A DNA stretch of 5,832 nt from a virus (taxonomy: Duplodnaviria > Heunggongvirae > Uroviricota > Caudoviricetes): IMG/VR virus record IMGVR_UViG_2675903654_000001, positions 1 to 5,832 of that record, one strand, 5' to 3'. The notes under the pieces are model-generated. The model saw only the letters and a list, made by a program, of their open reading frames with translations, had not been told where the DNA came from and made no database searches. Positions 6-4,904 of the stretch are shown here, piece by piece. Numbering within the stretch: the stretch's first letter is position 1; each line of letters opens with the position of its first letter. The position numbers and the translations under genes are program-made.

Positions 6-662
6 TTATCGCTCGCCACGGGAATATCTACGGCAGCAAGCCAGTAATGGGTTAAGTGATAACAGGTGTCTGGAAATATAGGGGCAAATCCACTCCCTGA
101 TGCAGTTGTATGTCTTTAGTTTCAGTCGTTCTCTTGTAACTACTATTTTCGGTGCTCTTGTTGGTGTTACTGGATTTTGAGATATACGTCCTTCAACAAT
201 GGCCTCGCGGAACATATCAGATAACACAGAACGCATTGATCCTGCCATCGTGTTTTTCCCTCCTTCAATCCACAAATCAAGAAACTCGGCAATATGGCGA
301 GTGGTTATTTCTGTCAGTAAAACCCCTCCTAATTTTTCTTTTATTGTCTCCAGTTGATTTACCCGAATTTTATAAGTATTTCTGGACACTTTTCTCCTTA
401 TAAGAATCGTTTTGTAACGTTCAATCCAGTCTGCCATAGTAAATGAGTCGAACCCTTTTAGTTTTTCAATTAAGGCAGCAGGAGAGTAGTTTTTGTATAT
501 ATAATGATTTGCTTCAATTGCCTGCGCTACTGCATCTCTTCTTGAAATTTTACCTAGTGTAAATTCTTCTTTCGTCAGAGGGTTGCGCCAGTAATATGCT
601 TTGTCCCTCCTTCGATATGTTAAGTTTTTAGGCAAATTGGGATCGTATTTTTTCCGCTGCAT
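6..662 (-). CDS. intR: Phage integrase, lambda Int family, N-terminal fragment only (arm-binding and core-binding regions; premature stop, catalytic domain absent); probable truncated allele or pseudogene
   Basis: Minus-strand ORF, ATG at 662-660, TAA at 8-6, 218 codons. SD GGAGAAG lies 7 nt upstream of the ATG, inside the xis 3' end. Residues 1 to about 185 align with the N-terminal part of lambda Int as recalled from memory (LPxNL, YYxRxPxTxKEFxLG, AIxAN, WxxRYxxIL, ITTxxIA, EGK, RSxLSDxFREAIxEG, TRAxK). No tyrosine-recombinase catalytic region follows before the stop, and the other two minus frames at 1-120 show no integrase-like sequence. Symbol is by synteny with Rac. Confidence 0.8.
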   Translation of the reverse strand: MQRKKYDPNLPKNLTYRRRDKAYYWRNPLTKEEFTLGKISRRDAVAQAIEANHYIYKNYSPAALIEKLKGFDSFTMADWIERYKTILIRRKVSRNTYKIRVNQLETIKEKLGGVLLTEITTRHIAEFLDLWIEGGKNTMAGSMRSVLSDMFREAIVEGRISQNPVTPTRAPKIVVTRERLKLKTYNCIREWICPYISRHLLSLNPLLACCRRYSRGER

Positions 663-2257: not shown

Positions 2258-4904
2258 TTGCATATTCCTTAGCCCAGCGGGGCAGTGATAACGTCTTAAT
2301 AGCTGGCCATTCATCGGTATTGAGGCAGTCAGCCAGGGTTCGCAGATTGCGGTGATATTCCAGCTGACCTGCCAGTTTTGCTTCTTCGCCCATCATGAAA
2401 ATTTCAACCGGATAACGTCCGCATTCAATAGTTGTGCTGGCAACCAGAAAAACGAAAGTTGGCTGCACTCCAAACTGTGCTTCATAACCGTCACTGTAGA
2501 ATGCATCCTGAACGTGATAGCGGTAGTCGTAATAAGCGGTTTTGAATCGTTGAATATCCGCCGTAGTTTTCACGTCCATGATCCAGTGAAATTCAGGGAT
2601 AATTTTGTCCGGACGGCACCGACACAAAATTCCTGTTTCAGGATCTTCCCAGTAAATTGATGATTCAGCGTGTCCGGCGCTTTCAACAAGCCATTGCCCC
2701 AGCGGCAAAGCCATAACGCTTTGATACATGAGTTCAATTTTCCGGCCTTCTTCCGCAGTGATAACCGTTTTTCCTGTGCTTGCGCATTCCATCAGAAACG
2801 CTTTCTCTTCTTCTTTTCCGGCGTTTGTACGGCGGTTAAATTCAGGTGCTACGATAAAGCGGTTACTGAATTCTTCCGGTTCAAGTACCCGGCAGTGGAA
2901 AGCGGTTCCTAAATCGAGCGTTTTTGTCTTTGTGGTGTCCACGGGGGCATTTTTACGCCACAAATACAGTGCCGGAGTATCAGCAATGTCGTCGAGCTGA
3001 GACTTACTGACACCGGGACCCGCGTGGTAATTCTCATTCGAAATTCCGTAATAAATACCTGGCTCTATGTCTTCTACGATTACGGGATCTGCGACTTCGC
3101 CAGTTTCATCACTGCAATCGCGATGCGGATCGCTGCCAGCATTCTCATTGTGCGGATGTTCAGCGCCTTCCATTTCCTCCGGATCATTTTCCTTAGCTTC
3201 AACCTGATTCTCTTCACCGAATGTTTCCTGGTATGTTGCGTCGCCCATCACCGCACCACAGTCAGGGCAGTTATCCCCGCCAGTCTGACCGCAGGCATTG
3301 CAGACTATTTCCGGTTCCTGTTGCACTACTGGCTCAGGTTGTTTCACATCCGGGCTGGTTTTTTCCGTTTCTGGCGTGTTTTGTTCCGTTTCTGGCTGGT
3401 TCTGGTACACAGAATCGCGAGTCTGGATCCCCTTAACCCATTTCGGATCGTTCGGGTCGCTAATTCCGTCAACAAATTCACCACGTGATGCAGCAAGCAA
3501 TTTATCGGCATCGACAGGATTTTTTGATGGAATGTTTTTCCGGGCTTCATGGAGTTCTGCCCGCAGTTTCTGATATTTCGCATCAACAGAATTTACCTGT
3601 GACTGAGCATCCAGCGGCTGCGTGTCCTGATGATGTTCAGTTGCGTCCGGTTCCATTGTTTCAGCCTCTCCCTGTTCATCTGCCGTTGTTCCAGTTGGTT
3701 GTGGTTTTTCTTCATCATCCTGTTTTCCTTCTTCTGTTACACGCTGCGGCATCGGGGCAGAGGAGCGACCGCAGGCAATATCCACGATTTCCGGATCAGG
3801 GTTGGCATGATCGGTTTCAGTCAGTACTTTGTTCAGATATTCAGTGACGTGCGCGGGGATGACCTCGATCCCAATTGGTGCTTCTTTCACGGACGCAACC
3901 ACGATGGCGCGTGAATAATCCAGCCCGCCAGGCATGGTGATGAATTTGTCGCGGAAAACAGAAAAGGGCGGTTTATTTTCAGCGATAATTTCCTCGACAC
4001 GTTTAGCGTGTGCCGGATGAAGGTTATAAATGTCCACGTCCATTGAACGAGCCAGTACGCCAGTGGCTACGTCGCGCGCCAGTGACGTCAGATCGTGAAC
4101 GAAACCTTCGCCGCGATCGGTGAGGTTCCCGCCGCCAGCATTAGCGCCGGAAGCCGTGCGCGTGATGCGTGAAACACGATTTCCTTTCATCCACTCTTTT
4201 GTCAGCAGACCACGATCGGTGTAGTCTGCGTCCAGGTATGCTTCGAAAAAAGCAGTCATCAGCCCCAGGCTTGAATTGCCTGGATTAGGGAAAACTCTGT
4301 CAGTATCACGCACCAGTTTGTGGAGATCGCGAATTTCCAGCGGGTCGAGCAGGCTGGTTTTGTGGGAAACAGCCAGGGCAGTAACAGCTGGTAGTTCTTC
4401 AGCTCGTGCAATGTGTAATGCCTGGAGTTTGTCGCGTGAAACGTGCGTTACCGGTTTTTCGCTGCCGTGTTGAGCAAGCCAGCGAATGGGCAGCTCCTGA
4501 CCGGAAATCGGGAGTAGCATATTCTCCTCAATCTCCGTCATGTCTTCGCCATTAACATTGGTATTGTCAGTGCTGGCTGGTTTGTCCTGCGCAGAGGATG
4601 AGGGCGCGATAAATACCATTGTGATGCCATCTTCCCCGCCTTTTTTGTAACGGTTGCAGAATTCCGTATCAAATACGCCTTCTGGTGGAAGGTCATCAAC
4701 AACGGGCAAATTGACGCGAACAGGTTTTTTAAAGTCATCTTCATCGTAGCCAGCATCGTCAATCGCAACAGCACCACGGGATATGGCAATGGATAATTTT
4801 TTCGCTTCAACCCAGTAGAAACCGCCTTTAATACCGAGACGTTTTCTTACTTTGTCATTTTTTGCTTCGTAATACAGTGGGTAAACTTGTTTATCGGTGC
4901 TCAT
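2250..4904 (-). CDS. recE: RecE exonuclease VIII (5'->3' dsDNA exonuclease; C-terminal PD-(D/E)xK-type nuclease domain, long acidic N-terminal region)
   Basis: Minus-strand ORF, 884 aa from ATG 4904 to TAA 2252-2250. SD GAGG is 9 nt upstream of the ATG; the ORF-track start at 4919 is a TTG five codons further up. C-terminal third (...[16 protein letters not shown]...[21 protein letters not shown]...[11 protein letters not shown]) matches the RecE nuclease domain as recalled, including a D-x-K motif in IMDVK. Forms the classic recE-recT overlapping pair. Confidence 0.93.
3363..3404. repeat. Imperfect 21-bp tandem duplication inside recE, encoding a repeated heptapeptide (QNQPETE / QNTPETE)
   Basis: Unit 1 at 3363-3383 (TTCCGTTTCTGGCGTGTTTTG) and unit 2 at 3384-3404 (TTCCGTTTCTGGCTGGTTCTG): first 13 nt identical, 17 of 21 overall. 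In frame, within the P/E/Q/T-rich linker of the RecE N-terminal region. Confidence 0.6.

Follow-up and report, generated by a model that had tools for sequence, protein, structure and literature searches.

The integrase gene at the left edge of the window (throughout, the whole 5,832-nucleotide stretch analysed, which is the entire 5832-bp draft contig CYFR01000126.1 of assembly GCA_001285905.1) is very probably a lambda-type int, normally 358 codons long, into which a variant of the insertion sequence IS2 transposed, splitting it after codon 190. The junction is observed directly, as is the identity of the sequences on both of its sides, and the open reading frame (ORF) that remains has no catalytic domain. 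Judged from its sequence, this copy is a pseudogene remnant of the lambda-type tyrosine integrase family, not a working member of it. The most likely form of the event would be a simple insertion that duplicated CTCCC (93 through 97) and left the catalytic half of the gene still standing beyond the IS.

Integrase ORF and its break point

The ORF occupies 662 to 6 of the minus strand; it opens with an ATG at 662 through 660, has 218 codons and closes with a TAA at 8 through 6. A preliminary description, made from the letters of the window, had presented it as the arm-binding and core-binding regions of a lambda-family integrase without the catalytic domain, and both parts of that description are borne out. 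Pfam assigns Arm-DNA-bind_1 to residues 3 through 61 (29.1 bits against a cutoff of 22, E = 1e-6) and Phage_int_M to residues 90 through 169 (40.6 bits against a cutoff of 27, E = 3e-10); the Phage_integrase catalytic domain has no Pfam match in the 218-residue ORF, whereas it occupies residues 180 through 351 of an intact allele. The core-binding domain of lambda Int (2OXO, residues 75 through 173) likewise aligns with the corresponding region of the ORF. Residues 1 through 190 are 100% identical at the amino acid level to the intact, annotated 358-residue integrases WP_047085834.1 and WP_001189091.1, with 1 to 3 nucleotide differences, and the ORF is therefore the remnant of a real gene rather than a chance reading frame.

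The break lies within the window. Megablast of window positions 1 through 1000 against 5,426 complete Escherichia coli genomes gave a long match in 226 genomes and, among the matches listed, every match to an intact gene begins at query position 93. Aligned to the intact product from GCEC19 (358 residues), the ORF shows 190 identical residues, and all similarity is gone after E190. Codon 190 (GAG) occupies 95 through 93 and codon 191 of the ORF (TGG) occupies 92 through 90; the lesion is thus at 92/93, 84 nt upstream of the stop in the coding direction, and not at the stop codon itself. At this site the intact allele reads ...GATCTGCTGC, followed directly across the insertion point by CTCCCTGATG. 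The preliminary description had recommended alignment to intact Rac int alleles as the way to locate the lesion; alignment to the 358-residue alleles places it at 92/93. The same description had held that the cause could not be determined from the window, which proves too pessimistic: at 92/93, inside the window, codon 190 adjoins the right end of an IS2 variant.

Authentic integrase codons 1 through 190 therefore occupy 93 through 662 on the minus strand and comprise the arm-binding domain, the core-binding domain and some 14 residues from the beginning of the catalytic domain; the catalytic-domain chain of lambda Int (PDB 1AE9) aligns from residue 177 of the intact allele. Over its whole length the intact allele aligns to lambda Int across residues 8 through 353 (E = 5e-72) and shares the three-domain layout of that protein (PDB 1Z1G, 1Z1B and 5J0N), namely Arm-DNA-bind_1, core-binding domain and Phage_integrase. 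The catalytic residues of lambda Int, R212, K235, H308, R311, H333 and Y342, map on the intact allele to R212, K235, H313, R316, H338 and Y347. Because all six map downstream of residue 190, the set is missing from the window copy, and the earlier statement that the Arg/Lys/His/Arg/His/Tyr residues are absent holds for the full span from R212 to Y347. Unlike lambda Int, the window copy is integrase only to residue 190 and continues as a 28-residue IS-derived tail, without catalytic residues.

Intact alleles from three complete genomes translate to 358 residues (WP_047085834.1 and WP_001189091.1 among them). The intact integrase gene is found in 228 of the 5,426 complete E. coli genomes, always at a coverage of at least 80%, and among the matches listed, 39 single-piece gene rows span 1076 to 1077 nt. 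Since the alleles are 358 residues long and the gene has at least this coverage in all 228 genomes, the family does not naturally end at residue 218, an outcome that the preliminary description had named as one that would overturn its reading. As to the length of roughly 410 residues quoted there for the Rac integrase, the number is sound (IntR of K-12 has 411 residues), but IntR fails as a full-length reference: BLASTP shows no significant similarity between it and the window protein (best E = 1.3), it carries Arm-DNA-bind_2 rather than Arm-DNA-bind_1, and the true full length of the interrupted integrase is 358 residues. What IntR (b1345) does share is its position in the gene order of K-12 Rac, beside an excisionase and upstream of rcbA, ralR, recT, recE, racC, ydaE and kilR.

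The partner of the broken integrase is an intact excisionase gene at 628 through 915 on the minus strand (a 95-residue ORF, called as 93 residues), which overlaps the integrase start by 35 nt. It matches Pfam Exc (PF07825, E = 6.5e-14) and is annotated in relatives as the excisionase WP_001311878.1. An overlapping xis gene upstream of int is a further likeness to lambda.

The IS2-variant terminus

Positions 1 through 92 (plus strand) are the right end, that is the last 92 bases, of an IS2-variant element of the IS3 family, and the contig ends inside this repeat. The 92 bases are 100% identical to elements annotated "IS3 family transposase" in many E. coli records, chromosomes and plasmids alike. 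Matches of at least 99% identity occur in 1016 records, and at lower identity there are 19,017 places in 4,333 genomes; the number of IS2-type places in a genome has a median of 3 and a maximum of 41. In frame 1, positions 1 through 81 (plus strand) encode the last 26 codons and the TAG stop (79 through 81) of the IS2 OrfB transposase. The 41-bp right inverted repeat (IRR) follows at 52 through 92, with one mismatch to the K-12 IS2 IRR and the dinucleotide CA at 91 through 92. The terminus thus reads ...GGGGCAAATCCA, which is the canonical IS2 end ...CAAATCCA-3', in keeping with the published IS2 IRR, which is 41 bp long and has CA-3' as its last dinucleotide (PMC3299598).

A complete copy whose last 92 bases equal window positions 1 through 92 is present in strain 720632 (L003:1262-2592). 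It is 1331 bp long, starts with TAGACTGGCCCCC, ends with GGGGCAAATCCA and is flanked by the duplication ACAAT; its transposase CDS ends at the position that matches the stop in the window (L003 2581). The copy has the full IS2 structure, with a left repeat and with orfA and orfB linked by a programmed frameshift. The OrfB of this copy has rve domains and scores 707.5 bits on the NCBIfam model NF006918, "IS2 transposase TnpB" (cutoff 597). Set beside IS2A of K-12 (insC1/insD1; IS3 family), the complete copy has the same length of 1331 bp, the same sequences at its termini (TAGACTGG... and ...GGGGCAAATCCA) and, likewise, a target duplication of 5 bp, the IS2 left end being TAGACTGGCCCCCTGAATCTCC. 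Unlike IS2A it is a sequence variant, at 97.6% identity overall and 93.5% over the last 92 bases. The 5-bp duplications at the IS2-type copies are ACAAT in strain 720632, ATTAC at K-12 IS2A and TAATG in the element of strain Z1323CEC0002 (L013), which is described below. By analogy with these copies, CTCCC at 93 through 97 of the window is predicted to be the right-hand copy of a 5-bp target-site duplication.

Positions 6 through 92, read on the minus strand as the reverse complement of the IS2 end, supply 28 read-through codons, WICPYISRHLLSLNPLLACCRRYSRGER, and the TAA at 8 through 6. The tail WICPYISRHLLSLNPLLACCRRYSRGER is the opposite-strand translation of the IS2 right end and no part of integrase, and the TAA is a chance stop within the IS. 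The preliminary description had remarked that the last residues look only weakly integrase-like, and rightly: the last 28 are translated IS2 right end, with no integrase sequence among them. The 218-residue product is deposited as CTZ64679.1, "integrase [Escherichia coli]", and an exact look-up returns this single record. The entry is thus an IS-disrupted pseudogene fused to 28 IS2-end codons, and neither a functional recombinase nor an unusually short one.

The outward-facing side of the terminus was also read by eye for a hybrid promoter. With TGGAAA at 71 through 76, which we assigned as an outward -35-like element, the flank CTCCCTGA contains no -10-like hexamer at a spacing of 16 to 18 bp.

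The event at the junction

In the proposed sequence of events, an IS2 variant (IS3 family, 1331 bp) inserted into int; its transposase gene lies convergent to int, and its right inverted repeat accordingly stands against codon 190. Translation from the intact int start would then run 28 codons into the end of the IS and stop at a chance TAA. Its product would retain the arm-binding and core-binding domains and none of the six catalytic residues, and would neither cut nor rejoin DNA. With the catalytic residues gone there should be no strand exchange, and the prophage's own excision function should therefore be lost; the prophage would not be excisable by its own integrase. Loss of excision, and hence the grounded prophage proposed in the preliminary description, is a reasonable inference from the loss of the catalytic domain, and a related integrase supplied in trans could conceal any such loss. 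Passages of a study of O157 report that defective prophages with disrupted integrases are common there and that other prophages, by interacting with them, can still mobilise them (PMC2669165).

If the insertion was simple, the far side of the element would read yebY ... int codons 358 to 191 ... GCTGCCTCCC, then directly TAGACTGGCCCCC, with CTCCC standing before the IS2 left end. The window stops short of this, 92 bases into the element, because IS2 is multi-copy and the short-read assembler stopped there. The other edge of the contig (5713 through 5832, just beyond kilR) lies in multi-copy prophage sequence, for which the number of places in an E. coli genome has a median of 2 and a maximum of 10. 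Both ends of the contig are ordinary repeat-induced breaks, and the leftward extension by about 1 kb that the preliminary description recommended has no sequence to draw on in this record.

It is unlikely that the IS2 element abuts codon 190 as described but that a more complex event, such as IS2-IS2 recombination or a deletion or inversion that the IS caused next to itself, took away or moved the catalytic half and possibly the attachment site by yebY. Elements this numerous, with a median of 3 and a maximum of 41 places in a genome, offer ample substrate for recombination, and for the source assembly neither the left IS end with its target duplication nor the catalytic half of int was found. 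The latter was sought by exact look-up of the predicted C-terminal fragment proteins, with three possible starts and nine alleles. Four fragments were present in the collection, and the contigs of three were examined, all of them from other samples; fragments of the integrase gene fold into one cluster of 1584 members. Against a more complex event, however, this failure reflects a limit of the method and is not evidence of absence, the C-terminal alleles being too diverse for an exact look-up to succeed.

The only fully assembled IS2-type case in int also speaks for a simple insertion. In E. coli Z1323CEC0002 (NZ_CP148498.1; L013) the integrase gene, at the yebY-side locus, is split by a 1331-bp IS2-type element, and the prophage has the order xis-ralR-recT-recE-kil, as in the window. 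The assembly there covers the two junctions as well as the two halves of the gene, and the insertion is clean, with a 5-bp duplication (TAATG) and both halves retained. It differs from the insertion in the window in lying after approximately codon 54, in the opposite orientation, and in an IS that is 96.4% identical to the window variant.

An assembly chimera, in which int is intact in the organism and an IS2 end was wrongly joined to it at the contig edge, is very improbable. The contig is a draft short-read product that ends in a repeat, and the junction rests on this one assembly: it is absent from the complete E. coli genomes, an exact search for the 38-base junction across one genome per species gave no match, and no other record contains it. 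Yet the final nucleotide of the IS2 inverted repeat (CA-3') is precisely where the join falls, as transposition predicts. A mis-join has no reason to break at the exact terminus of an element, and around the join int and IS2 have no sequence in common by which an assembler might have been misled. Because the junction coincides exactly with the IS terminus, we attribute it to transposition and not to mis-joining.

A point nonsense mutation, a frameshift or a family that naturally ends near residue 218 can be given practically no weight, and all three are excluded by the junction alignments and the gene coverage: identity falls from 100% to none at one nucleotide position, the DNA beyond is 100% IS2 variant, coverage is at least 80% in 228 of the 228 complete genomes with the gene, the three translated alleles have 358 residues, and nothing was found in favour of any of them.

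Interruption of int by a transposing IS2 variant accounts for the lesion, and a consequence beyond loss of function can be imagined. The remnant, residues 1 through 190 plus the 28-residue tail, might still be made and might bind attachment-site DNA without cutting it, competitively locking this or related prophages in place; lesions at the domain boundary (IS2 here, IS66-family ends in five other samples, a frameshift at codon 190 in another) would then be favoured and hence recurrent. The remnant has lost neither its own start codon nor the overlap with xis. The apparent clustering of lesions near codon 190 is, however, largely explained by the way in which the lesions were found, since the look-up used an ORF starting at Met203, and we regard such a role as highly doubtful.

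Other lesions of the gene and the surrounding prophage

Inactivation of prophage genes by IS insertion is already well known, and the present case is nothing new in kind. Passages on the lambdoid prophages of O157 Sakai describe defects that comprise frameshifts, deletions and IS insertions, with the integrase disrupted in Sp3, Sp11 and Sp12 (PMC2669165). These are different prophages that have followed the same general route of decay; the type of the integrase lesion is left unstated in those passages. The case in the window has little import beyond correct annotation. It does carry a caution for scans of draft assemblies: an ORF that terminates close to the edge of a contig should be inspected for an internal IS terminus before other causes are considered.

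Many other isolates carry lesions of the same integrase. In five other samples (L016:1-30, L017, L018, L020 and L021:1-75) an IS66-family end (...GCGTTCATATAG) abuts the integrase just before codon 191, no more than approximately 2 nt from the point where IS2 joins it in the window; these were found through the biased look-up with the ORF starting at Met203. The coincidence may be due to chance or to a local insertion hotspot. Among further independent lesions, the ends of foreign elements adjoin codons 199 and 203 (L008:1-28 and L009:1-28), the prefix in L009 resembling an IS600-type end. One-base frameshifts occur at approximately codon 190 (L014:1896-2971, int of 1076 nt) and approximately codon 178 (L015:1894-2971, 1078 nt).

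The complete genome of 98E11 and some others align over 1076 rather than 1077 nt of the integrase gene. Alleles of 1076 nt were considered as frameshifts near codon 190, and this interpretation was rejected: the 98E11 gene is annotated as an uninterrupted CDS of 1116 nt and 371 codons (L022:261-1376) and is not truncated there.

The 218-residue product itself groups with 229 integrase fragments, most of them partial and N-terminal, and many of them from Shigella sonnei, S. boydii and S. dysenteriae. This composition suggests that in IS-rich genomes the gene is frequently disrupted or falls across the ends of contigs.

Compared with K-12 Rac DNA, the window is homologous only from position 966, with 95.6% identity over 966 through 4566 (rcbA, ralR, recT and recE) and 88.4% over 4897 through 5822; the stretch with int and xis, 93 through 965, has no homologous DNA in K-12 Rac. 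The contig itself contains no chromosomal flank. Prophages that carry this int adjoin yebY in four complete genomes, whereas K-12 Rac lies at ttcA. The prophage is a mosaic, in which an int-xis cassette of lambda type is joined to a Rac-like early region (rcbA, ralR, recT, recE, racC, ydaE and kilR), and it is not Rac itself.

Within the Rac-like region, Rfam identifies a full-length RalA antitoxin sRNA at 1020 through 1198 on the plus strand (219 bits against a gathering score of 170). It is antisense to a DUF1187/rcbA-like ORF and adjoins ralR, as in K-12 Rac. The recE gene is an 889-residue ORF with a TTG start (called as 884 residues). Positions 4567 through 4896, part of its N-terminal region, have no blastn match to K-12 recE, between flanks of 95.6% and 88.4% identity, and it looks as if a variable segment of the dispensable recE N-terminus lies here.
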